Source: Cyanidioschyzon merolae | Lineage: Eukaryota | Assembly (NCBI GenBank): GCA_000091205.1 | Contig: AP006501.2 | DNA length: 64,000 nt | Direction: 5' to 3' (one strand) | Shown: piece after piece, positions 4,066 to 61,638 of the stretch | Numbering within the stretch: position 1 is the stretch's first letter | Layout: every line of letters begins with the position of its first letter | Position numbers and translations under genes: made by a program | The notes under the pieces: model-generated | Told to the model about the DNA's origin: nothing | Seen by the model: only the letters and a program-made list of their open reading frames with translations | Database searches by the model: none

Positions 4066-4381
4066 AGCAACCATGCGCGCAAGCACTCTCTGCATCACGA
4101 CTTTAATGCCTCGAGCGACATCCGCGAATGTCCGGTACTTCCAGAGCATCCAGTGAGTATTACGTCGAGCGAACCTTGCGGCAATCGTTTGGTACCCAGT
4201 GGGCGCATTCTGCTGCAATGCTGCGGACATCCGCCAAACAGAATACGAATCCATGGGAGAGCGGCATGTTTTGCCTTGGCGGATCACGGCACTGGTGTGG
4301 TGCTGCTCAGCAATGCGGAAAGCATTGAGCGCGGTACGGATACTCTGGGGACGATTTGCGTTGGCAATATCTGAAAGACAA
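4066..4381. repeat. Direct repeat copy 2 (partner of 1-316)
   Basis: ~96% identity to window positions 1-316; diverges after ...gacaataatgtttc. Confidence 0.85.
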
Positions 4382-5363
4382 TAATGTTTCCATGTTCGGT
4401 GTTTCTGCTTGTATACAGGTCACGTCTTTTTCTTTGTTCGCGATTCGCCCAGTATTCATGCGGTATGCCAATGAAAGCAACTGGATCATCGAGTCAGGTA
4501 CTCGCGGAAGCCGGTCCAAGAAAACAGAGACGAGCTGTTCTTCGACATGAACAAGGCTAGGATCTATCACGTCGCTCTGTATGCTCCTACCTGTGCTCTG
4601 CTTGATGACGACACGAATACTGCCAAACATGGTATTCGAATGTTGCTCAACCTGCTAATTGCACTGGAAGTACGCGAACGTTCCCAACAAACCACATGAT
4701 GCCCTGAGGTTTAGCTTGTATATGTTGAACATGATATTTAAGTCGCATTGCTCAGCGTGTTTCGCAAAGATTTGGTGCGCTTTTGTCCGAATCGGCTGAA
4801 GGATCACGTCCCCGAAAACGTCACGAGTGAAAACTCGGTACGGAGGCACGCCCATGCTCGCGCACGGTACGGAGAAGGCGGGGCTCCCGACGCGTGGCGC
4901 CCTCAGGAGCTGCACAGTAGGCTGGCGTCAGTGGAACCTCCTGTTTCGGGCGCAGTCGTCATCGACGTCACCCTCGGTGATATAGCGTATCACTGATGAC
5001 GGCACTAGCTATCTTTGGGGTCGATACGGGCACGAGTGCAGAGCTGGAATCATCAAGACGCCCTTCAACCAGCGCGAAACGATCCCAGCATTCTATCTGT
5101 TGGAGCGCTCCACGCCCAGGGCCAACTGCATCCGGCACGCGCGCCGCTACGCCTACATTGCTAGTGTCCACGAATGCATAGTGCCGCGCTTACCAAGCGA
5201 TGCCTTCATCCAAGCAGAGTATTTATTGGAGTCAATGGTGCCATGAGTCCCTGTCGCGTTTGTACTGTAGTGCTGACACCCCAGATTATCAGTACTCTCG
5301 TAGGTGCTGCTCGACCAGCATCCATGGATGAACAGTGACGCACGAACCAAGTACCGTCTTGAT

Positions 5364-6950: not shown

Positions 6951-8649
6951 TCGCGCCGACGCGCTCGAGTCGGTGACTTTTTTCGCTCACCAAACGTTTA
7001 TGTTGTACCTGGATCCCTTATCGCGGGACGAGAACTGGCTATCGGGAAAGCGCCCATCGTGATACGCCTCACCCTCAAGTTCCATTCCTTACAATTCCTT
7101 TCGGATGTACTGGTCGTTTCATGGGTTGTATCGAGCATCGAGTGCCCGTCGTGCTGCATCCACCTTGGCGCCTAGACAGCTGGTGCAGATGCACCTTAGA
7201 GACAGAACGGCTTTGCTGTACCACTGGGGGCTTCGGCTCGAGATGTGGTGCACCTGACACGGATTCGGAGTCCATCATCATGCTGGGGGCCTGGAAACTG
7301 CGCTGAAAGAGCTACCGTCTGCGGCAGCTCGAAGCGACATGCCGGGAGTCCACTGCGACCAGGGCGACGCCCAGACGCAGCCTAACTGCTGCTCCTAGTC
7401 CCAGAGTCGACTGCGTTGCGGACGAGGTGTTCAGGTCGCACCACTGCACTAGGCACAGGTAAGGGCGTGAAGCACTAGTCTTGCAGACTCGTTCGGATTG
7501 CGGGCCGTTTCGCCCTGAAGGCAAACTTTCGGAAGTATGGAAACCTTTTCGCCCTTTTAACGGCTACCGTGGAATGGGACAGGAATCGTTACATCGTTTC
7601 TCGTGAATCGTTCGTCTCTTTCCTTTTTTTCTCCGAATAGCGCGGTCGATAAGCACACCTGCGAGATCACGCAGTCACGAGAGACGACGCGCATGTCGCC
7701 GATGAAGGGAAACGCGTTTCTAACTATGCTCTGACCTATTGCCCTACCGTACATGTTGTATTCGAATTACAGGCGTAGCGGAGTACAGTTTTTTGAGTTC
7801 AATCGCGTTTGAAACGTCAAGTAAGCATATTCAAGTGATGCTGTGCGGTGTATAGGAGAAGCGTTCAATGTGCGTTCTTTCGCAGAAAAAATTCTAAAAA
7901 AAGGAAAGTTATGAGAAAGCAAGTCGACGATCGCGGAGGCGCAGTGTCGCCGGCTGCCAGAAAAAGAACGAAAAACGGTGCCGAGCCCAGGAGCACAGGC
8001 AAAGACGATGAAGCAGAAGCGGGAGGCCCTACGTCAAAGGCCGCGGGAAAGACAACAGTACGACGAGACGGTGGTGAAAGCGTACCTTCGTAAACATATC
8101 AAGGATGCCTACAAGGAAAAGTTGCGAGAGGCCATCAGAAACCGTGTCGAGTCGTACTCCACGAGTACGAAGAAGGCTTCGTCAGGACTGATGCATATGG
8201 TGAACGAGATGCACGACAACGCGACGGACACCAGAACAGTCGAGGTTCCGGGGGAATTTTTCAACAAGACCTTTGCTCGTCACCTGATGGTCGGCACAGG
8301 GGAGCCGTCGACAAACAATGAGCGAGTGCACGCCTTCCACGAAAACTTCGCGGGATTCGGCTTCGAAGGTGCATCGATACAAGGGTTACGGGGATATTCA
8401 CATCTACGGGCCGATCGAGTACCTCGCGAACCTGAGGAACCATTTGACCATGAACCTCGAACGTTTCATGATACGCGCCGTGTTTGCGCTCTACCGGGGC
8501 ATCTCTCGCGGGGAAGAGATGGGCCATCTTCGCTGCCATCACCAACGATCGTCAGCATGAACAGGCAATAGAATTTGTCGACAAGATGACATCACGCAGG
8601 AGCATGAATGAAGCATATGTGATCGGTGCAGCTATTCAAGAGCGTCGTG

Positions 8650-8777
8650 GTAACACGGAGGTAGGGGGTTGGATAGATACTTCACCTCGCACTGAAAAAA
8701 TATCACAAAAAGTAAGAAAAGTAAAATGCGCATAATCGGAGAACGCTGGCCCAAGTAAACGTTTTGTCCATGGAAAA
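8650..8777 (-). mobile_element. ~130-bp MITE-like repeat, here called R2, nested inside copy A
   Basis: Absent from the orthologous position in copy B. Flanked by 12-bp direct repeats aagagcgtcgtg (8638-8649) and aagagcatcgtg (8778-8789). Homologous to 20355-20469 and 39066-39250. Confidence 0.7.
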
Positions 8778-9271
8778 AAGAGCATCGTGAAGTCTTGGGG
8801 CTGGCCAACCCGACAGAAGACGTGTCAGATATGAAAAAAGTGAGAAAAGATGGTACCCCCGCATCCTGCGCTACTTCGTGTTTCTGGACCGAGAACTCGA
8901 ACGCAAGGCGGAGATGGTGCTGGGTGTGTGGAAAAATGAAGAGTCGCGGAGACGGAACGCTTTCCCAATGGGGAAGTGCTTCAACGTGGTTCCAATGAGC
9001 AACATCAAGTCACATTTTGTGACTATCGACCAAGGCGTCCACTACGGCAACATGAGTGAGATCAGTCCGGTGTTCGGTGTCAGCAGGGAGGAGTTCACCG
9101 GTGAAAATCGGGAGACGTACCGGAAGAGTCTCTTCGGTTTCAAACGTCTCAAAGTGAGCAAGCAGAAGGTATTCACGGGGATGATCGGAACCGATGGCGT
9201 AGCCACGTGTGTACGCTATCGGAGGTTTGAAGGCGGATTGTCCAGTTCGGCCTTCGATATCGCCCGTAACG

Positions 9272-9421
9272 AAGCATGAAGAAAACAGGGAGGAGGATCC
9301 TGCCACACAGAAAGTGCAGGATAACGACTTTGTCGTTGACGCGACGAAGCGTGAAGATGAGATGGAGGCGGGTCCTGCTACGCAGAAAGTGCAGGATAAC
9401 GACTTTGTCGTTAGTGCGGAT
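9272..9421 (+). repeat. Tandem 66-nt repeat (two units) encoding an acidic [19 protein letters not shown] motif immediately N-terminal of RuvC-I
   Basis: [20 protein letters not shown] / [18 protein letters not shown] in A; four units at the same place in copy B. Confidence 0.7.
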
Positions 9422-10425
9422 CCCGGGAACACAAATATCATAACCATCGCAGTACCCAAGCGTGCGGAAGATGGTATCAACGGCAACCTACGTCAGACGG
9501 CCCTGCGAGTTTTGAGGTTCTCGAGAGCGGGATGCTATCGAGAATCCGGTATGATCAATGTGAGGAAGAAAATTGAGACACGGAATGCAGGAATGAAGGA
9601 TCTCCTGGAAGCTTTGCGCGGAGTAACGAGCAGAGGAGCAGGCTTTGAAGCTTTTCCGATATTCATGGAAGGTCGCGTTGCTCATTGGGATGCGCTGCTG
9701 GAGGAGTATACAAAGCCCCGGTGGGCTCGTCTGCGTATGAATCTGTACGGTGGTAAGCAGCGGGCATTCGCCAAATTTTTCAGTCAGTTGAGTGCCTTGA
9801 AGGAGGACGAGAGCCAGAGGCTGGTAGTGGCATACGGAGCAGGGCGTCCACAAAAGGGTGCACACCAGCTCCGTCGACGAGAACGTACAAAGCGTGTGCA
9901 CGGCGCTTTGTAATGATACCGATTGATGAGCTCCGAACGTCCTATACACACCACGAACTGGGGTACACACTTGAGACGGTCGACATGGAAAAGTGCCAGC
10001 GGAGTCCTGAAGATATGAAAAAGTATGGAGCGCTAACGGAGGAGCAAATGGACAGGAGGGCGAAAGTTCGTGGACTACTCGCATTAGTAAGTACAATCAA
10101 TGGCAAGAAACGCATGGAAATTGTTAACCGCGACTTTAACGCGGCTACCAATATAAGGAGGTGCGCGGTGATGGAGAGAAGACCTCCGTACTTGACAAGA
10201 GGGAATTTCGTAGGGAAACCTCTCGAGGTGGAATTATACGAGAAAAAGTTGAAACCGGTAGTAGGTGGCCGGTCCAAAAAGAATGTGAGGCATCTGCACG
10301 TCGACTGGAGGCGCATTGTCGAAAGCGCGCCGCGCTCCCGTTAAGCGCCAGTGCGCAGAAGAATTTCCTTCGGTTTCGAGGTATATTGAGAAGGGTCGCG
10401 TTCGTTCTGTGTAGAAAGCTGGACT

Positions 10426-19404: not shown

Positions 19405-19557
19405 ACGGCTGTTGCCCTGCGCGTCCTATTGTACGTTCCCAGGGCGACACGTCCCGCGAACCCCGCTGGCTCACAGAAGCAGAAACCGGAGGGGTGCGCT
19501 CCACGCTGCCGGATCCGCCTCCGCGTCGAGCACATCGCTGCGTTTTTGCTCAGTTTT

Positions 19558-19813
19558 ACAGAATGTTTCCATGGACTAGGGATACCAGATTGCGGGATGG
19601 ATATTGGCATTCGGGAGTGTGCCCATCATGATGCAACCTATGCTCAAGTTCCATGATGCATACTTTTTCTCGGGGGTGTACTGGTCGATTTGAATGTTGT
19701 ATCATGCGGCGAGTACCTGCCTTGCTGCAGCCGCTATACCGCCTATACCGCTGGTGTGGATGCAACCTAGAGACAGAACAGTTTTGCTGTATCGCAGAGG
19801 GCTTCGACTCGAG
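19558..19813. repeat. Inverted repeat, left arm (partner 24333-24578, ~95% identical)
   Basis: Reverse-complement identity seen directly; the spurious ORFs 19556-19765(-) and 24372-24782(+) translate identically. Confidence 0.85.
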
Positions 19814-19831
19814 AATGTAAACTTAACCTTC

Positions 19832-20545
19832 TCAAAGGCGCCTCTCGGCCTTTTTCGACCGGCCACCTGCTATCGGATTGAGTTTCTTTCTGTGCATATC
19901 GAGCCTGAGAGGCTGGCCCACAAAGCTGAATCGCATCAGCTCCTGGGGTCTCGTATCCAATACCGCACATGGTCTGATTTTGATGACGACGTTGAAGCCT
20001 CGATGCACAAACTCCATGCGTTTCTTTCCTCTGATGGAACGCAAAAGTGCTAGGATTCCGAGAACTCGCGACCTCTCTCCGATTCCAATCGCGCCATCGT
20101 CCCACAGGGCAAACTCCTTTTCTCGCCCATCTCCCTGTTCTTCTTCTTCTTCGTCACTTGCCCTTCTTCGCTCGATCGTCAGCGATGAGAGGTGTTTTCC
20201 CCTTTTTTCGTCTGCCAGCAATAACCACCAACCAGGATTCCCGACTTTTATGTCCATATCCTTCCCTTAGATTGTCACCTTCGTCAAAATGAACGCACTT
20301 TGCGTATATCTGCTATGAGCGGAGAATAGACCTTTGATGACACGCACTTGCAGGTTTTTTCATGGACAAAACGTTTACCTAGGCCAGCGTTCTCCGATTA
20401 TGCGCATTTTTCTTTTCTTACTTTTTTTGTGTTATTTTTCCAGTGCGCGGGAAAGTATCTGTCGAACCGCACGCACTTGCAGGTGGAACGCAATTGAGTT
20501 GAACGGTCATGAGCGCAGCACCTGGACGCCGCTTCCGCTGCGCTC
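19832..20545 (-). mobile_element. Copy D of the Fanzor-like family: internal-deletion derivative (5' ~250 bp joined to 3' ~300 bp) with a nested R2 insertion
   Basis: 5' region homologous to A 7790-7960 (..VGNPGWW.. versus VGDPGGP / DDRGGAV). 3' region KKRMEFVHRGFNVVIKIRPCAVL...GGRSKKAERRL. 3' terminus ggccggtcgaaaaaggccgagaggcgcct at ~19843. Confidence 0.7.
20355..20469 (+). mobile_element. R2 MITE-like repeat inserted into the 5' region of copy D
   Basis: Flanked by a perfect 14-bp direct repeat cacgcacttgcagg (20341-20354 and 20470-20483). Fanzor-like homology resumes on the far side. Confidence 0.7.
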
Positions 20546-23879: not shown

Positions 23880-24332
23880 TCGCCATGCGCTGTGGAGTCG
23901 TCACAGAGAAGGACAGGCACTGCCCATTTACTAATTGCGACTGTTCCAAATGAAGACAAGTCGCCAGGAACTAGCAACTAGATAACATTTCGTTCCACCT
24001 TCATGGTAAGCGTTGCAAAAGGGGAACTTTTTCCGTATTTTCGAAAGATTACCTTCGAGGCGGAAAGTCCCTCGCGCCAGACGAGTCTGCAGGGTTGGTG
24101 CTTGAAGCTATTCCCAGCGGCGGGTACAGTGCCGAGACCTCATTAGCTCGTCCACAACGCAGTTATTTTGGGACTTGGGGCGCCAAGGCTGCATCCAGGT
24201 ATTGGCTTGGTCGCAGTGGTCCCCTAACATATCGGTCCGTGCTGTCGCAAGCAGTATTTCTGGCTGCGCAGCTTGCAGGCTCCCAAATTGATGTTGAGTC
24301 CTGATTCTGTGACTTGTGAACCATGACGCGAG

Positions 24333-24578
24333 TCGAAGCCCTCTGCGATACAGCAAAACTGTTCTGTCTCCATGTTGCATCCACACCAGCGGTATAGGCG
24401 GTATAGCGGCTGCAGCAAGGCAGGTACTCGGCGCATGATACAACATTCAAATCGACCAGTACACCCCCGAGAAAAAGTATGCATCATGGAACTTGAAAGT
24501 AGGTTGCATCATGATGGGCACACTCCCGAATGCCAATATCCATCCCGCAATCTGGTATCCCTACTCCATGGAAACATT
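24333..24578. repeat. Inverted repeat, right arm (partner 19558-19813)
   Basis: Reverse complement of 19558-19813. Confidence 0.85.
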
Positions 24579-25258
24579 CTGTCAACCAAAAGAATCGTCG
24601 TGCGGTCGATTGGCGCGCTGGGGCGCTACGAAGCACGCATCGCATGTCTTGCGGGATCGAAGCGTCCAGCCAGGAATCCCCTCAGTGCGCACTTGACATC
24701 GGCAGCGGAGGCAAAAACCACCGCTCCATTCAAATCCAAAGCTCCCTGGTTCCATCACTCACCACCAAATAACCCGCCATGAAGCATCCCGATACCTATT
24801 GCGTGCCTCGTGGTCCCGTTGCATCGTTTGCAGATGCAGGATCGAGACATCGACCGAGATTCCCCGGCGGATGCGCGATTGCTCTCAGAAACCACATGAT
24901 AGAGCACCGCTCCATCCGAAACACCTCAAGTTCCGCAAACCCTGGGCCAGTACGCAACAACGGACACTGGGATTCGTTCCGTTCAACAACATGGGTCCTT
25001 CCAGGTATCGCGCACGCCTCAGGCGCTCGCTGTGACACAGTGCATGGGCCTGCACCACGCGGTTGCGCGGCGGTTGCACGCGCACCGAGGCGCCCCGACG
25101 AGCGCCGACTCGGCGATTCTGGATGCGTGCGCTGGTGTCGCATTCTGCAGCGATGCATCCGTGCCCTGGGCCTCGAGACACGTGTCCGGCATACAACATG
25201 CATGCACGCATGCATGTTGCACAGCGCCAAGTTTGGCATAGCGCGGGAGCTGCTCTGA

Positions 25259-31149: not shown

Positions 31150-31680
31150 GTGGAGAGCAAATTCGGACTGAATCGTAGGGATGCCTCCCAGCCGTTTTTG
31201 ACCGGCTGCCATATTCTCGATCCAGTTTTTGTCCAGGTAAACTTCGAGCCAGGCAGACTGCCCCACAAAGTTACATCGCGTCAGCTACGCGGGTTTCGTC
31301 ATTAGTACCATAAATCGTCTCATGTGGATGATGTTCTTCAAGTCTAGGATCACAAACTCCATGCGTTCGTTGCATCTAGTTGAACTCACTAGTCCAAAGA
31401 TTCCTCGAACTCGAGCGCGCAGTGCCATTTGGTGCTCTGTCAGCTCTGCGCGCTTTTCTGTCGCAGAATCGCTCCGCCGGCTCTTCTCCATTTCGTTCCT
31501 CTGAAGTATACGCCCCAGTTCATCCATTAGATTTTCTCTTTCGTCAAGCGAACATACTTCCTCACGCTCTTAGGTCAGGAGTTTCCCAGAGGATCGAAAG
31601 TCTTGCAAAAGAAAGACGAAATGTGCCCTGGTGTGTCACCGTGTGCTGAAAGCTTCAGCGATTCGCCCAGTGTAGCGATC
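31150..31680 (-). mobile_element. Copy E: Fanzor-like 3'-region fragment fused to an unrelated ~130-bp segment that is also found in copy G
   Basis: DELG..MEK..ELTEHQMALRARVRG..NERMEFVILDL..RRFMVL..LTRCNFVGQ. Upstream block gtcaccgtgtgctgaa.g.ttcagcgattcgccc (31633-31672) recurs at 47159-47197. Confidence 0.6.
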
Positions 31681-35169: not shown

Positions 35170-35279
35170 AGCATTTCGAGTGTATCGCAACAGTACCCAT
35201 CCGCTGGACAGCGACGAACCGGCGTGCATCGGATCTAGCGACTCGAGCCGGTCTCGTGCATTGACGCGTTTCGAGTACC

Positions 35280-35785
35280 TAGAGACGATAGCGTGTGTGT
35301 CTGTACACCGATTTGCAGACGCCCCCCCCCCCCCCCGGGTTTTGCTCTAAGGGCCCCATGCCATCGGCTTTAGTTTCTTCTCGTGCACCTCGAGCCGGAG
35401 AGGATGTCCAACAAAGCTTGATCGCCTCAGCTCCTCGGGTCTTGTGTTCAGCACCGCACTTCTCCGGATATGGATCGCAGCGTTGAAGTCTCGGTTCACG
35501 AACTCCATGCATGTATTGCCGCTGTGGTTGAATTCACCAATGCAAGGGTTGATAGGACTCGTTCCCTCTGTACCAGTACAGTCTCGTCATCTACCCGTCA
35601 GGCAAACATCTTTTCTGACATATCTCCCCTCTTCGTATGCTCATTCTTCCTGCTCTTCTTCGCTTCATAGTCGACGAGAAGAGGATATTTTTGAAGCATC
35701 CAGCGATGATGACGGCCCTGCGGGATCCCCGACTTGCAAGTCCATACCTTTTCCTTGGATTTTATTTGCACTTTAAATCAACGCA
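35280..35785 (-). mobile_element. Copy F: internal-deletion derivative of the Fanzor-like family; contains a C16 tract
   Basis: 5' region aaaatccaaggaaaaggta...gtcggggatcccgcagggcc homologous to H and A; 3' region is diverged RuvC-III-like (antisense frame IAALKSRFTNSMHVLP); poly-C at 35322-35338. Confidence 0.55.
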
Positions 35786-36167
35786 CTTGGAATGCACCTG
35801 CTGTAACTCATGAAACCGCTTTTGATACCAGGCACCTGGATATGGAACACCATCGAGTTGATAGCCTAGAATCGGGGAATGGATCTCAGGGCAGCCGCCG
35901 TCGCCGCCGCTGCCGCCGCTGCATCGATCCACTCTCAGCGCAGCGCAGCAGCAGGGCGATGCAGTGCTCATCTGCAACCTCCGAAAACGTCCTACAAGGT
36001 GTTGCGTGAAGTACACGAGCACCTGTTTATCCTGGGGAATTTTCGAGGCAATCGATAGGTGTTTCTTTTTGGGGGCGGCTGCTGCGGCGATCGCTTGCTT
36101 TTTCATAGCGAGCACGGAGAGGCAGGGCTTGTCATCGGAGGGTACCGCTTGCTCCGCCCCCGTCACA

Positions 36168-39056: not shown

Positions 39057-39260
39057 CACGCGCAGGTTTTTTCATGGACAAGACGTTCACATAGGCCAGC
39101 GTTCTCCGATTATGCGCATTTTTCTTTTCTTACTTTTCTTGTGTGTTTTCTTTCAGTGCGCGGTGAGGTATCCATCAAACACCCGATCTCCAACGTACAT
39201 TACCGATACCTCTTCTCGGATATTCTGGTCGTTTCGTATCCGCATGCAGATCAACGCCAC
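39057..39260 (+). mobile_element. R2 repeat, longest copy (~185 bp)
   Basis: ttttttcatggacaagacgttcacataggccagcgttctccgattatgcgca...; flanked by ccacgcgcagg (39057) and ccacgcgcgg (39251). Confidence 0.55.
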
Positions 39261-42492: not shown

Positions 42493-43011
42493 CTACTGAA
42501 CGGAACACCAGCCCCGCGAAAAATACGGTTTAACAACCTCCGCGGTCGTCGCCGGTTGCGCCACCGTGCCAGTGCTGGAGCCACTGGTTCGTGCTGCTGC
42601 TGCTGCTGCTGCTGCTGCTTCCTTGCTGTGGGGCAGCTTTGACCCCTTGTCCTTCTTCTTCGGTTTGGAGGCCCCGGCTCCGGTGCTCTTTGGTGCTTTC
42701 TGTGACTTGGGCTTTTTCTTCTCTATTTTGTCCGGACGACGCTGCGCCGTAGCTTTGCTTTTCCGCGACAACTTGGACTCCCGTTCTAGTTTCAACGGTA
42801 TGGGCTCCCGTTTCGCTGCGCGGGCGGCTGCGGCAGCCGCGGCGGCGGCACGAGCCGGTGTTCGTCGCGGTGTGGGTAGTGGCGCCTCAGCCGTCGTGGG
42901 GCCGGCGGGTGCCGCCCTCGAAGGCAGCGCCGCCGTTGCCGCTTTTTTGTGCGGAATTTTTTGAGATTTTTTCTCTTCAGACTTGGTGCTTGATTTCATT
43001 TTCACGGTCAT
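42493..43011 (-). CDS. Lys/Ala-rich basic protein (histone-H1-like composition)
   Basis: Start taken at MTVKMKSS (43011); the longer N-terminal extension in the ORF track reads through tandem repeats and is an artefact. Confidence 0.35.
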   Translation of the reverse strand: MTVKMKSSTKSEEKKSQKIPHKKAATAALPSRAAPAGPTTAEAPLPTPRRTPARAAAAAAAAARAAKREPIPLKLERESKLSRKSKATAQRRPDKIEKKKPKSQKAPKSTGAGASKPKKKDKGSKLPHSKEAAAAAAAAARTSGSSTGTVAQPATTAEVVKPYFSRGWCSVQ

Positions 43012-43075
43012 AGAGGGTTGAGAGGGCCTTTCGTTATAGAAGAACGCGAAAACGTGGACCAAGCGCGCGACGTAA

Positions 43076-43197
43076 CGCATTCGTGCGTGCGCGCGCGAAT
43101 TCGTGCTTGTGCGCGCGCATTCGTGCGTGTGTGCGCGCTCTCGTGCGTGTGTGTGCGCGACGTAACGCATTCGTGCGTGTGTGCGCGCCTAGCGGCG
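43076..43197. repeat. ~6 tandem copies of a ~20-bp unit (attcgtgcgtgtgtgcgcgc) abutting the 3' terminus of copy B
   Basis: Seen directly: cattcgtgcgtgcgcgcgcg aattcgtgcttgtgcgcgcg cattcgtgcgtgtgtgcgcg ctctcgtgcgtgtgtgtgcgcg acgtaacgcattcgtgcgtgtgtgcgcg. Confidence 0.8.
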
Positions 43198-43204
43198 ACA
43201 TCTT

Positions 43205-45797
43205 TTTCATTGACAAAACGTCTCCAACTGACGTGCAGGCGCCTCCCAGTCTTTTCGGACCGGCCACCCACTACTGCTTCCAAATTCTTCTCATATAGTT
43301 CCACTTTGAGAGGTTGTCCAACAAAGTTCTCCCGTGTCAGCTCTGGAGGTCTATTCTCCAGCACAGGACATCTCCGTATATTGATAGCGGCGTTAAAGTC
43401 TCGATTCACAAACTCCATACGCTTCTTGCCGTCATTGGTTGTACTCACTAATGCAAGGAGTCCACGAACGTTCGCCCTCCTTTTCATTTGCTCCTCCGTC
43501 AGCGGTCCGTACTTTGCTATTTCCTCAGCGCTCCGCTGACACGTTTCCATCCCCACTCGCTGAAGTGTACATCCCAGTTCATGGTGTGTATACGATGTTC
43601 GAAACTCATCTATCGGTATCGTAACGAAACGCCGTGCACACTCCTTGTACGTTCTTGTCGTCGGAGCTGGCGTAGTTTTTTTTGGGTCTTCCAACACCCT
43701 GCCCTATACGCTACTGAGAGCCTCTGACTTTCATCCTCTATGAGGGCACTCAACTGATTGAAAAAGTTGGCAAACGCCCGCTGGTTACCACAATACAGAT
43801 TCATTCGCAAACGAGCCCATCTGGGCTTTGTATACTCCTCCGGCAGCGCATCCCAATGGGCAAAACGAACTTCCATGAATTTCCGGAAAGCTTCAAAGTC
43901 CGCTCCTCGGCTGGTCACCTCGCTCAAAGCTTCCAGGTGATCCTTCATTCCTGAATTCTACGTACAAATTTTCTTCCTCGCATTCATTATACCGGATTCT
44001 CGATTGTATCTCGCTCTCGAGAACCTCAAAAGGCGCATGTCTTTCTGACGTAAGTTGCCGTCAGTACCATCTTCCGCACGCTGCGGTGCTGCGATGGTGA
44101 TGATATTTGTGTTTCCGGGGTCAGCGCCAACGACAAAGTCGTTCTCATGCACTTTCTGCACCGCAGGACCCGCCTCCTTCTTTTCTTCATGCTTCGCCGC
44201 GTCAACCATAAAGTCGTTATTCTCCATCTCCTGCGCCGAAGGATCCGCCTTCTTCTCATCTTCATCCTTCGCCACGTCAACGACAAGGTCGTTATCCTCC
44301 ACCTCCTGCGTAGCAGGATGCTCCTCTTTGTTTTCTTCATCCTTCGTCACGTCAACGACAAACTCGGTATCCTCCACCTCCTGCATCACAGGATCCTCCT
44401 CTTTGTTTTCTTCATCCTTCGTGACGGGCGCGGCCGAGGGCGGGACTGGCCCATCTGTCTTCAACCGCCGGTGGTGTACACACATGGCTACCCCATCGAT
44501 TTCGATCAACCTAGTGAATACCTTTTGTTTTGCTCGAATTGAGAAGTTTGAAATCGAAGATATTCCCCCAGTACGTCTCACGGTTTTCACCGGGGAACTC
44601 TGTCTTCCTTACACCGAACTCCGGACTGATCTGCCTCATGATGCCGTGAAGGACTGCGGAGTCGATAGTCACAAAATGTGACTTGATGTTGCACAACGGA
44701 ACCACGTTGAAGCGCTTCCCCATTAGGGCAGCCCTCCGTCTCTACCACTCTTCATTTGTCTCTTCACTCAGCTTCATCTCTGCCTTGTGTTCGAGCTCTC
44801 GGTCGAGAAACACAAAATATCGCAGGAGGAGGCGATAGTATCTTTCCTTGTCTTTTTTTCAACTCTGATATCTTGTCTGTTGGATTCGCCAGCCCCAGTA
44901 CCGCACGATGCTCTTGTTTAGCCACACGGATTACAGAAGCTTCATTCGTGCTCTCGTTTGGCGCCTTCTTATCGACGAATTCGACCTCATCTTCATGCTT
45001 GCGATCGTCCGTGATGCCGTTGGTAATCGCCCGTACGCCTTTGCGATAGATGGCCCGGTACGGCGCACACACGGCGCGTATCATGAAACGTTCGAGGCTC
45101 ATCGTCAATTGGTTCTCCAGGTTCGTGAGGTACTTCATCGCCCCGTATGTGTAAATATTTCCGTCACCGCTGTATCGATTATCCTCGAAGCTGTAAAAGG
45201 GATGTTTTTCATGGAGGGCATCCACTAGCACATTTTCCTTCCGCGCTTCTGCTGTACCAAGCATCAGCTGTCGAATAAAGGTCTTGTCCAAGAAATCGTC
45301 CGGAATCTCGACCGTTTCAATATGCGCCACGTCTTCGTACATCTGCCTCGCCAAATGCATCACTCCTGACGACGCCTTGACAATGCTCTTGGAGTACTAG
45401 TCGACAAGTTTTTCGATAGCGTCTCGCAACTTTTCCGTGTACGGATTCTTGATATGTTTAAGAAGACCAGCTTTCACCACCATCTCGTCGTACAGTCGTC
45501 TTTCTTGCCGCCTTCGACGTAGGGCCTCCCGTTTTCGGTTCCTCTTCTCTTCTTTTTCTTCTGGACTCGGCACTGTTTTTTGTTTTTTTTCTAGCAGCCG
45601 GCGACCCTGGGCCTCCAGGATCGTGGACTTGCTTTTTCAAGACTTTCCTTTTCTAGTTTTTTTGGAAAAGAACGCTCCTTGAACCCTTCTGTTATACGCT
45701 ACGAAAAACACTTGACTAGACTTGTTTGAGGGTTGAAACACAAATGAACTGAAAACTTTATTTTTGTTCGAATCCTACGCGAATACAACTTTTACAG
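43205..45797 (-). mobile_element. Copy B of the Fanzor-like RuvC nuclease element, ~2.6 kb, frameshifted
   Basis: ORFs 45458-45640, 44764-45363, 44511-44723, 43958-44590, 43610-43948 and 43008-43697 on the minus strand. Ruv[20 protein letters not shown] (Asp ~44121). RuvC-III EFVNRDFNAAINIRRC (Asp ~43399). 5' terminus gttgtattcg shared with A. Confidence 0.8.
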
Positions 45798-46585
45798 CTG
45801 AACATCACGCTAGAGATCAGGATCGCGTTTTCCTTCAACGGCGGCATGCGCATCCTGTCTCATGCTTGCCTGATCTCCCAGGAACGCTCATTTAGCGCAC
45901 TGCGTGCACCGCGCGAGACGCCTCACCGATCGATGAAGGACACGTGTCCGACACCCCGCCTTGGCACATGCGTGTTCGCATCGCGCTGGAGCGAAAATCA
46001 AGTGTCCTAGATCGTGAACTCACGTAGAACGATCTCTTGCTGTAGGCTCTGTCGCTGGTGCCGACGCTACTGCCCATCGCAGTACCGTCCTGACATACAA
46101 GGGGATGCAGGGGCCTGGTACGATACCCGTCGACGCGTCTATCAAACGCGTAGCGTTCTCTGCGGCTTACGCTTGTGCGGATGAGATATGCATCACTCTA
46201 CTCATTAGAAATTTCGTTACATTTATTGATCGTAAACAAACAAGGTACGGTAGTGTTCCCCAACACGGATACAAGTTTATTTCATTTGCTTGTTATACAT
46301 GCCGCACGGACGCTGGAATAAGGAACTAACCTGAATTTTGCTTCCACCCGGCGTCACGGGCTGGAACTGATGGCGCTTCAAGTCATTTCCATGCTGCTGT
46401 CGTTGTTCAACTTATGGTGCCTGCATCGTCCTCCGGATCCGGTGATCTTGGCCGAGGCATACCACACATATAGCGTCCAGATCTGCCACGACGTTTGAAC
46501 ATTGCATCTCGCCTGGCATGATCGACACGCTTGAGAAAAGCGCATACTGTATTCTGGTCTACTCTATCAGATTATATACAATTGC

Positions 46586-47200
46586 CTAACCCGTACATCG
46601 ACGACCGCAGACCAACAACAAACGCCTTCCAAAAGAAAAACGTTTTCGCCAGCCGTGTACAGTAGTGGCGCTCTGCGCGCCCCAGACGAAACGTCTCAAT
46701 CTACCAGTCCGCAGACGCCTCTCAGGCTTTGTTGAACGGCCGACTGGTATCGATCTCAGCTTCTCCTTGTACAATTCGAGACTGGGAGGCTGTCCCACAC
46801 CAAAGTTGACATGCCACAGCGCCACGGATCTCGTCTTCAGAACCGCACATCCCCTGATATTGCTAGCAGTGTTAAAGTCTCGGTTAACAAACACCATGCG
46901 TTTATTGCCTCTTCTTGAACTTGTCCATGCAAGGAGTCGTCGAAGTCATGCCCTCACTGCCATTTAGTGCTCTATCAGCTCTCCGTGCTTTTCTGTCGCC
47001 GAAGCGCCCCGCTGGCTCTTCTCTATCTCATTCTTCTGAAGTGTACACCCGGGCTCATCCCTTGATTTTTCAAAATGAAGAAACTTGTTTATATCTTTAA
47101 GTTGGAACCCTCCCGGAGGGATAAGCACTTGCGGGGAAAACATGACATGAGCCCCGTAATGTCACCGTGTGCTGAACGTTTCAGCGATTCGCCCCGCAGA
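46586..47200 (-). mobile_element. Copy G: Fanzor-like 3' fragment plus the extension shared with E
   Basis: MVFVNRDFNTASNIRGCAVL...LELYKEKLRSIPVGRSTKPERRL; upstream gtcaccgtgtgctgaacgtttcagcgattcgccc. Confidence 0.6.
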
Positions 47201-57790: not shown

Positions 57791-58349
57791 AACAAGCACA
57801 AAAGGCGACAAAATGTGACCGGATAGAGTACCGGCAGCTGCACTGGCAGCATCCGCCACAAGCGAGGCGTTTAAACGGAAACCACGCTGCGTCGTCTGCC
57901 GCGGTGCGGTCCAGCGAGCACGTTCCCGCAACGACTCTCGCACTCGCAGCCATGTCGGTGACAATTGAGCTGCTCTGATACCATAATTTCTACAAGAAAA
58001 GCACGAAATGGAAGAACGATGAGCGCGAGTCGACCCCGAAAGCTCGCTCCTAACTGCAAGGCGACCAGGATGCACAGGCAAACAAAGCGCCCTCTGAGCT
58101 GGTCCACTGACCACGTATGCCAGGTGAGGCGGTCGCCCGCCGCATTTACCCGGTCTCATGGACACCTGTAAGCGCCTATAGTTACCGCAAACGTCACGAA
58201 TCGCGCCTAGGCCCCTTTGGTGACACACAGCCAAACGCTTGTCCTTTTGCACGGAGCACGCACGAGACACGCATGTATGCACGCAAGCACTGCACGCACG
58301 CACGCACGCACGCACTGCGCGCAGGACGCTCGTACCACTGCCTGACGCT

Positions 58350-58440
58350 TTGGGTGGCGCTCGATTCGCGCGCGATGAGGCACCCATCGTTCCATCTACT
58401 TCCAAGTTCCATAACCCATACTTCTTCTCGGATATTCTTG
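58350..58440 (+). repeat. Partial R2 repeat (3' part)
   Basis: gcgcgatgaggcacccatcg...ccatacttcttctcggatattcttg homologous to 39160-39230. Confidence 0.45.
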
Positions 58441-58574
58441 TTGCTTCACGTCTTGTTTTGTGCAGCGAGTGCTTGCAGTGAGCTCCCACGATAGCACCTA
58501 TATCATCGGTGCGGTCGTTGCACAGAAGCAGGACGGGTTTGTCGTACCACAGATGGCGTCGGCACGAGCGGGTA

Positions 58575-59175
58575 GACTGATACCCACGCACAGGCGCCTC
58601 GCAGTGTTTTTTGACCGGCCCTCTGCTATCGGTAGTAATGCTTGTCCGTGCACGTTTCGAGTCTGAGAGTCTGTCCCATTAAGTAAGATGGCCTAATTTC
58701 GTCAGCACTCGTCTTCATCCCCACACATCGTCTGATATTCATGGCGGTGGTGACGTCTCGGTTCACGAACGCTATTCGTGCATTGACACTGATTGAACGC
58801 ACCAATGCAATGATTGCTAGAACTCGCGTACCCAGCGCCACTGACGCCTTGTTGTCGCCCCATTCTACAAATACCTTTTCTCGTGTCTTGCCCTTCTTCT
58901 ACTTTTCATCGTCATTTGCGCTTCTTCGGTCTATTGTCGGTGGGAAGAGGCTTTTTTCGTTTTCTTCCTGCAACCGGCGATGGTGGCCCTCCTGGATCCC
59001 CGACTACCATGTGCGTACGTTTTCCTTGGATTTTTTTTGTTTCATCAAATGAAGACACTTCGAATGCATCCGCTATACACCGCGAAAAAGCATTTGATGA
59101 CATACACATTGACCTGGAACTCCATTTATGTGAAGGACTGTAATGATGGCGCTGTCGTGGCGAACGCTTTGCTTG
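58575..59175 (-). mobile_element. Copy H: internal-deletion derivative of the Fanzor-like family (5' ~280 bp + 3' ~320 bp)
   Basis: 5' region ggtgtatagcggatgc...gtcggggatccaggagggcc...cgccggttgcaggaagaaaacgaaaaa (VGDPGGPPSPVAGRKRKK) aligned to A 7830-7960. 3' region IAFVNRDVTTAMNIRRC...ggccggtcaaaaaacactgcgaggcgcctg. Confidence 0.7.
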
Positions 59176-60959: not shown

Positions 60960-61550
60960 GCGGTATGCGAAAGAATCTGGACTGTGGGAGGCAGCGTGCA
61001 TTCGTCAACTTTTTCAATCAGTTGAGCGCCTTGAAGGAGGATCAAAGTCAGAGGCTCGTAGTAGCGTACGGAGCAGGGCGCTGGAAGACCCATAAAGGGA
61101 CGAGGCCAGCTCCAACGACAAGAATGTATGAGGCGTGCACACGGCGTTTCGTTACGATACCGATAGATGAGTTCCGAATATCCTATACACACCATGAACT
61201 GGGATGCACACTTCAGAGGGTCGAGATGGAAACGTGCCAACGGAGCCCTGAGGATATAAAAAAGCACGGACCGCTGACGGAAGAGCAAATGGAAAGGAGG
61301 GCGAAAGTTCGTGGACAACTTGCACTAGTGAGTACAACCTATGATAGTAAGAAACGTATGGAGTTCGTGAATCGTGACTTTAATCCTGCTATCAATATAA
61401 GGAAATGTGCGGTGCTGGAGACGAGACCTCCAGAGTAGACAAGACAGAATTTTACTGGACAACCTCTCAAGATTGAACCATATGAGAAAAAGTTTGAAGC
61501 AGTAGTGAGTGGCCGGTCGAAAAAGGCCGGGAAGCGTCTGTACGTCAGTT
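60960..61550 (+). mobile_element. Copy C: 5'-truncated Fanzor-like 3' fragment lying in the divergent MECR/NDUFS8 promoter region
   Basis: Single-frame QRAFVNFFNQLSALKEDQSQRLVVAYGAG...RRFVTIPIDEFRISYTHHELGCTLQRVEMETCQRS...KKRMEFVNRDFNPAINIRKCAVLETRPPE; 3' terminus ...ctgtacgtcagttggag at ~61548. Confidence 0.75.
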
Positions 61551-61638
61551 GGAGCCTTCTCGTCCAGGGCGGGTTTTTCGCCACTACTGTATACCGCTGG
61601 CGACGTTCGACTTTAGAACGGCGTTTACTTTTGGTGAA

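Follow-up and report, generated by a model that had tools for sequence, protein, structure and literature searches.

The question raised by this locus, a 64,000-nucleotide stretch of Cyanidioschyzon merolae DNA that we refer to as the window, is whether three short sequences (D, F and H), which join the beginning of a TnpB/Fanzor-like element to its end, are random fragments, separately shortened elements, or members of a family that spread in its shortened form. The C. merolae genome is among the most compact and repeat-poor of eukaryotes, with CMe-1 as its main repeat family, and to our knowledge the mode of movement of any Fanzor1 element is still unsettled. Our analysis indicates that D, F and H probably represent an old and now extinct non-autonomous subfamily of CMe-1, about 0.58 kb in length, which originated in one deletion, then spread, and subsequently decayed.

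The long ORFs of the window are intronless eukaryotic housekeeping genes, and the 737-aa threonyl-tRNA synthetase (ThrRS) and the YrdC/Sua5 protein that it encodes are exact matches to C. merolae 10D. The window is nuclear DNA of this red alga, and the TnpB-like gene found here is therefore a Fanzor. Comparison of the window against itself recovered two long copies of the element, A and G, which are 73-80% identical to each other, along with several 3' fragments. The RuvC-I, RuvC-II, and RuvC-III motifs (GADPGNT(N), IDEFRTS, and NRDFNAA; including VNRDFNAAINIRR) are present in the broken ORFs of A and G. A protein stitched from A and G pieces retrieved, in a protein search, 24 relatives with GADPGNT, IDEFRTS, and NRDFNAA, all of them from metagenome contigs nearly identical to C. 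merolae. These motifs, shared by A, G, and their relatives, bear out the initial annotation, which had placed the family with TnpB/Fanzor-like proteins; searches against Pfam returned no significant family for either the ORF pieces or the intact relatives. More than 527 stretches matching CMe-1-type elements were present in the C. merolae-like metagenome contigs.

The Fanzor1-carrying element CMe-1A of C. merolae was described by Bao and Jurka (2013, Mob DNA 4:12; PMC3627910) as comprising ~150 copies of ~3 kb with ~80% identity to their consensus, the 5' 635 bp of which correspond to another repeat, TE-N2_CMe. Its target site duplications (TSDs) were not determinable, no terminal inverted repeats (TIRs) were found, and no transposase partner of CMe-1 is known (PMC3627910). 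The window repeat is this published Fanzor1 family: the host is C. merolae, the mean identity between long copies is 0.81, the long copies carry the RuvC motifs, and the short copies match the 5' and 3' parts of a profile of the long ones. A module directly upstream of A, termed X, we infer to be TE-N2_CMe, that is, the 5' 635 bp of the CMe-1A consensus. Because D, F, and H have no X on their 5' side, they form a separate subfamily and not CMe-1A proper. The other members of the family in the window, together with module X, are as follows.

6985-7639, plus strand: module X, ~650 bp, directly upstream of A.
7640-10328, plus strand: long copy A, degraded and frameshifted, without the ~61-nt 3' module described below.
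31174-31668, minus strand: copy E, of the J type, without the terminal module.
43205-45899, minus strand: long copy G, degraded, without the 3' module; a different module, Y, lies upstream to ~46300.
46621-47194, minus strand: copy J, comprising the 3'-most ~380 bp and the 3' module (46621-46686), with ~140 bp on its 5' side common only with E.
60963-61625, plus strand: copy I, 5'-truncated, covering the long profile from ~2243 to its end, with a complete 3' module (61563-61625).

The family is modular on its 5' side. Among ~20 distinct long 5' ends, the upstream sequence is X in ~9, Y in ~7-8 (including G), and a reverse-complemented X-like tail in 2-3, the rest being unique. Module Y, at least 330 bp in length, occupies 45900 to ~46300 in the window and recurs at six metagenome loci (L045, L028, L035, L076, L046, and L085), and it joins the element body at the same junction point as X. 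Copies E and J are ~70% identical over 495 bp, and the ~140 bp that they share matches neither long nor short copies; they constitute another 3'-anchored chimeric subfamily. Several minor features were also observed. Tandem ~75-bp repeats lie within the Fanzor ORF at 44124-44426 (G) and 9265-9412 (A), and the variation in their number between elements accounts for the profile gaps near 1620-1860. One metagenome locus (L082, 2314-4269) holds two 3' halves arranged head to head as a palindrome, both truncated near profile position 1860. Simple repeats with CACACGCACGAATGCG-like units flank the 3' end of G at ~43000-43200 and overlap a called ORF (42493-43170). A 327-bp direct repeat (1-327 versus 4067-4393; 95.7% identical) is unrelated to the Fanzor family.

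The short copies were located with a search profile of A and G, the long copies of the window (7640-10328, plus strand, and 43205-45899, minus strand). Each was matched twice, on the minus strand, in agreement with the initial description of D, F, and H as composites of a 5' and a 3' piece. In D, profile positions 173-386 match 20356-20131 and 2572-2818 match 20078-19836; in F, 201-328 match 35816-35686 and 2597-2826 match 35547-35309; and in H, 163-336 match 59125-58953 and 2585-2826 match 58824-58584. The extents first assigned to the three copies were roughly right; our own extents are the following.

19815-20510, minus strand: short copy D, defined by profile matches and by its colinearity with F, H, and the three metagenome copies; interrupted by a later insertion.
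35274-35867, minus strand: short copy F, defined by profile matches and alignment; broken frame and a G-run near the 3' end.
58570-59139, minus strand: short copy H, defined by profile matches and alignment; broken frame; its ortholog is present at metagenome locus L075.

The 5' piece comprises ~120 bp upstream of the ATG, within which lies a conserved TATA-like stretch, and ~55 codons. The 3' piece consists of the final ~95 codons, among them those of the RuvC-III motif, and the unit includes a further ~25-30 nt surrounding the stop codon site, ending ~25-30 nt past GAGGCGCC. What had been noted earlier about the retained and missing parts stands. The start codon and the N-terminal block (M..VGDPGGP.., K/R-rich) are recognizable in all three copies (D, MDIKVGNPG..; F, MDLQVGDPAGP; H, VVGDPGGPPSPVAGRKRKK). 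The NRDFNAA region and the 3' motif GGCCGGTC.AAAAA...GAGGCGCC are likewise kept in each, and the nuclease core has been lost, with both RuvC-I (GADPGNTN) and RuvC-II (IDEFRTS) missing.

D, F, and H can be aligned with one another colinearly from end to end, through the junction. Among 79 metagenome loci fetched with a C-terminal peptide, we found three further short copies with the same architecture and junction (L016 7775-7210, L035 5939-5361, and L076 5963-6532), located beside long copies. Six distinct short copies, half of them from this window, were thus sampled across ~0.56 Mb that is redundant in part. Comparison of the 601-bp short consensus with a consensus built from 19 long copies (2682 bp) places it at positions 142 to ~425 and ~2325 to 2621. 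Purine-rich stretches of similar sequence (ACG.GA..TG..G.A) border the deletion on either side, and no GT..AG was found at its boundaries. On the segments that they share with the long copies, all six short copies group together as a clade (bootstrap support 100/100). Mean identity is 0.65 among short copies (60-70% pairwise) and 0.58 between short and long copies, compared with the 0.81 among long copies. The breakpoints had initially been described as differing between D, F, and H; the alignment instead places a single junction in these three and in the three metagenome copies. The shared junction, together with the monophyly of the short copies, argues for one deletion event followed by copying.

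The short copies had also been thought to keep both element termini, which proved incorrect at each end. Compared with ~40 long copies, the short form lacks long-consensus positions 1-141 and the terminal ~61 nt, and each of these missing ends carries a hairpin in the long copies. On the 5' side, the long copies start sharply, with the hairpin CGCGCTC-GAT-GAGCGCA at consensus 1-17. At the 3' end, 38 of the 39 distinct long termini (loci L011-L089) continue from the stop codon into a ~61-63-nt module, TCTAGGGCG..CCACTACTGTACAC..CGTTCGACTTTCGAACGGCGTT, which holds a 7-10-bp hairpin, CGTTCGA-CTT-TCGAACG; a second sequence variant with shifted register, AACGTTTTTC..GAAAGGCGTT, lends this hairpin qualitative support. 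Within the window, the 3' module is present only in I and J and is lacking from A, G, D, F, H, and E, and the long copies A and G stop within ~8 nt of the 3' end of the short family.

The sequences flanking the six short copies are unrelated to one another, except for an X-like tail at D and H. The target-site signatures proposed as a check did not appear: at the short copies we found no TSD, TIR, or target motif, and their flanks have no common word of at least 8 nt. Given that the short copies are only 60-70% identical, TSDs could have decayed. Around the long copies composed of X and the element body, TSDs were likewise not found above the level of mismatched controls. The designation MITE-like thus does not hold in its strict sense, the outer hairpin-bearing ends being missing and TIRs and TSDs absent. 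What the short copies do have in common with MITEs is a deleted coding core and the same architecture at six dispersed loci. One architecture at six loci with unrelated flanks argues for past mobilization of the short unit and against random fragments.

The retained 3' region also bears on a possible role in guide RNA production. Fanzor guide RNAs derive from a 3' non-coding region that abuts the right end of the element, and Chlamydomonas reinhardtii contains highly conserved stand-alone fRNA copies that cover this region (Jiang et al. 2023, Sci Adv; PMC10530073). The C. merolae short copies resemble the latter in keeping a Fanzor 3' region without the nuclease; in contrast, they are decayed, retain a 5' piece, and lack the last ~61 nt. 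Their 3' part amounts to ~290 bp, and its terminal stems fold no more stably than shuffled sequences. A candidate hairpin with compensatory changes, identified by eye at the short 3' end, was rejected on this ground, as its 5-bp stems were no better than dinucleotide shuffles in single-strand folding (z -0.2 to -1.3). RNAalifold on 37 long 3' ends produced only a 4-bp stem without covariation, and a search against Rfam gave no match in the window. With the last ~61 nt missing and no conserved structure found in these analyses, a guide-RNA role (omega RNA or fRNA) for the short copies is unsupported.

The constancy of the short boundaries suggests a different origin, which we consider unlikely. 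Under this alternative, positions 142 and ~2621 (at the stop codon) would be the true ends of an ancestral IS605-like Fanzor unit, whereas the first 141 bp, modules X and Y, and the 61-nt tail would be carrier sequences. The short family would then be the eukaryotic counterpart of the bacterial mini-elements composed of LE and RE (PATEs). Consistent with this, the boundaries are the same in all six short copies, the 3' ends of A and G fall close to the same point, and at least three alternative upstream modules are joined at one point in the long copies; moreover, Fanzor1 genes have often been captured by other transposons (Bao and Jurka, PMC3627910). However, A and G still have positions 1-141, the tail is present in all but one of the distinct long 3' ends, and an empty carrier, in which 1-141 would be joined directly to the 61-nt tail, was not seen. 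The failure of the short 3' stems to fold better than shuffles also weighs against a genuine ancestral terminus at that point.

X-like sequences occur in the window in several contexts beyond module X itself, both inside elements and at their ends.

19535-19814, plus strand: X-like sequence at the 3' end of D; in the orientation of D, the reverse complement of the first ~280 bp of X.
20356-20469, minus strand: 114-bp insertion in D, an A-tailed 3' fragment of an X-like (TE-N2_CMe-like) element; the site is uninterrupted in F and H.
23961-24616, minus strand: solo X copy (X2), from the self-comparison.
39066-39238, plus strand: X-like 5'-region fragment; the inserts in A and D belong to its family.
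58375-58568, plus strand: X-like sequence at the 3' end of H, joined, like the one at D, at X profile position 501/502.

The insertion in D lies between two identical copies of a 15-bp target duplication, ACCTGCAAGTGCGTG (20341-20355 and 20470-20484). Likewise, A carries a 128-bp X-like insertion (8650-8777) within a 12-bp target duplication (8638-8649 and 8778-8789), at a site that is uninterrupted in G. Both inserts are the reverse complement of the first ~110-130 bp of X-like sequence and end in GAAAAA, a signature like that left when a 5'-truncated copy is inserted by target-primed reverse transcription. On this signature, X as oriented in CMe-1A would be the reverse complement of an A-tailed retroposon-like element. 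The X tails start at an identical position at D and H, even though these are not closest relatives, and the other four short copies have no X tail; beyond the tail of H lies a (GCGT)n simple repeat (~58280-58330). Two inverted 257-bp X segments, one beside D (19555-19811) and one in X2 (24329-24585), lie ~4.5 kb apart and are 97% identical, compared with ~70% for other X copies, suggesting a recent gene conversion or duplication. The possibility that X holds an inverted copy of the element's 3' end, forming long TIRs, was discarded, the local alignment score being 34 against a shuffle mean of 33.

These inserts raise the prospect that the short copies themselves spread via RNA, as retrocopies or template-switch chimeras generated by the machinery that inserted the X-like fragments. 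We regard this as quite unlikely. In its favor are the A-rich-ended inserts with 12-15-bp target duplications in D and A, facing empty sites in F, H, and G; the continuation of both D and H into a 5'-truncated X-like tail of the same orientation and X start coordinate; and the many 3'-anchored copies in the family that are 5'-truncated or 5'-chimeric (I, J, and E). The short copies, however, do not themselves have the retrocopy or SINE hallmarks of an A-rich tail and variable TSDs that the inserts in D and A display: none of the six has an A-tail or a target duplication, and four of them have no X tail. Furthermore, the short unit includes ~60 bp upstream of the TATA-like stretch, which would be absent from a transcript of that promoter, and the two copies with X tails are not sisters. 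That the constant short boundaries mark the ends of an original Fanzor unit later captured by X, Y, and the 61-nt tail, or that parts of the CMe-1/TE-N2_CMe complex spread by reverse transcription, as the A-tailed X fragments with target duplications and the identical X junctions behind D and H might suggest, is on the whole improbable; if either were true, this would be a eukaryotic Fanzor family with a mode of spread unlike every assigned class.

The origin of D, F, and H in three independent internal deletions at their present sites, as the initial annotation had it, is very improbable and is refuted by the shared junction. Such deletions do occur in the family, as in the copy at L020 (2498-4267), which lacks profile positions 408-1246 and has a 5' breakpoint close to that of the short family; however, the junction is the same in six of six short copies, and these form a fully supported clade only 58% identical to the long copies.

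The coding status of the short copies was assessed from their reading frames, among which one ORF stands out.

19832-20257, minus strand: 141-aa ORF in D, fusing the N-terminal remnant to the RuvC-III/C-terminal remnant, with the catalytic D replaced (VHRGF).

Only D has an ORF, the frames of the other five short copies being broken, and in the short consensus the N- and C-terminal halves lie in different frames. For these reasons, the ORF of D looks like an accident created by a secondary frameshift. Related strains have it intact, at 99% identity, yet these strains are 99.3% identical overall, so that this conservation says nothing about selection; a protein search with the ORF returned its own ortholog only. 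Judged from sequence, the short unit encodes no nuclease, and its consensus encodes no fusion protein. That the unit is a retained mini-gene for a functional small protein such as that of D is hardly credible, the intact and conserved ORF notwithstanding, in view of the five broken copies, the out-of-frame halves of the consensus, the lost catalytic Asp, and the uninformative similarity of the strains.

We thus favor the reading of D, F, and H as an extinct non-autonomous subfamily of CMe-1. In the mechanism that we propose, a single internal deletion of ~1.9 kb took place in an ancestral element between the two similar purine-rich stretches, removing WED/REC and the RuvC-I and RuvC-II parts. 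The deleted unit was then copied to the several unrelated genomic places at which it is found, in a process that may have depended on functions supplied in trans, and its copies have decayed to their present state. Trans-mobilization by the same machinery is not straightforward, because both outer ends of the long elements are missing from the short ones. The cis-acting requirements must then be internal to these ends, unless the short copies diverged before the long lineage gained them.

The short subfamily is an ordinary, expected kind of derivative of a known transposon family, although we found no description of it in the literature consulted. The window elements are like CMe-1A (PMC3627910) in organism, protein family, ~80% identity among long copies, and absence of TIRs and TSDs, and copy A with module X fits the reported ~3-kb length, including its ~635-bp TE-N2_CMe 5' part. 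The CMe-1A paper (PMC3627910) makes no mention of a ~0.58-kb internally deleted subfamily, of long copies with Y or a reverse-complemented X tail on their 5' side, or of the ~61-nt hairpin-bearing 3' end. Like MITEs, internal-deletion derivatives of DNA transposons, and the bacterial PATEs derived from IS200/IS605, the short copies are short, dispersed copies of one architecture from which the coding core has been deleted. They differ from MITEs and PATEs in being without the outer ends of the parent, TIRs, TSDs, and a detectable target motif, and in having no known partner transposase. The significance of the subfamily lies in three points: a deletion-derived unit spread after losing the nuclease, it lacks the outer hairpin ends, and the long copies are modular on their 5' side. 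These points set concrete, testable boundaries for the cis requirements of the family.

Finally, we examined the age of the insertions through related genomes. For F, the ThrRS-Tim17 synteny is kept in Cyanidiococcus yangmingshanensis and in a second relative, and no empty site was found there: the ThrRS-Tim17 spacer measures 809 and 927 bp in the two relatives versus ~990 bp in the window, the spacers are unalignable, and the sole profile match had an E-value of 0.45. All of the closer strains examined, at 99.3% identity to the window, contain D, F, and H, and copy G occurs in a contig of 94.5% identity. The initial annotation had taken the family to be transpositionally active in this genome. 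Past mobilization is consistent with the six loci and their unrelated flanks, whereas recent activity is contradicted by the 60-70% identity of the short copies and by the presence of D, F, and H in the 99.3%-identical strains. On these levels of sequence divergence, the activity of the short copies is ancient and not recent.
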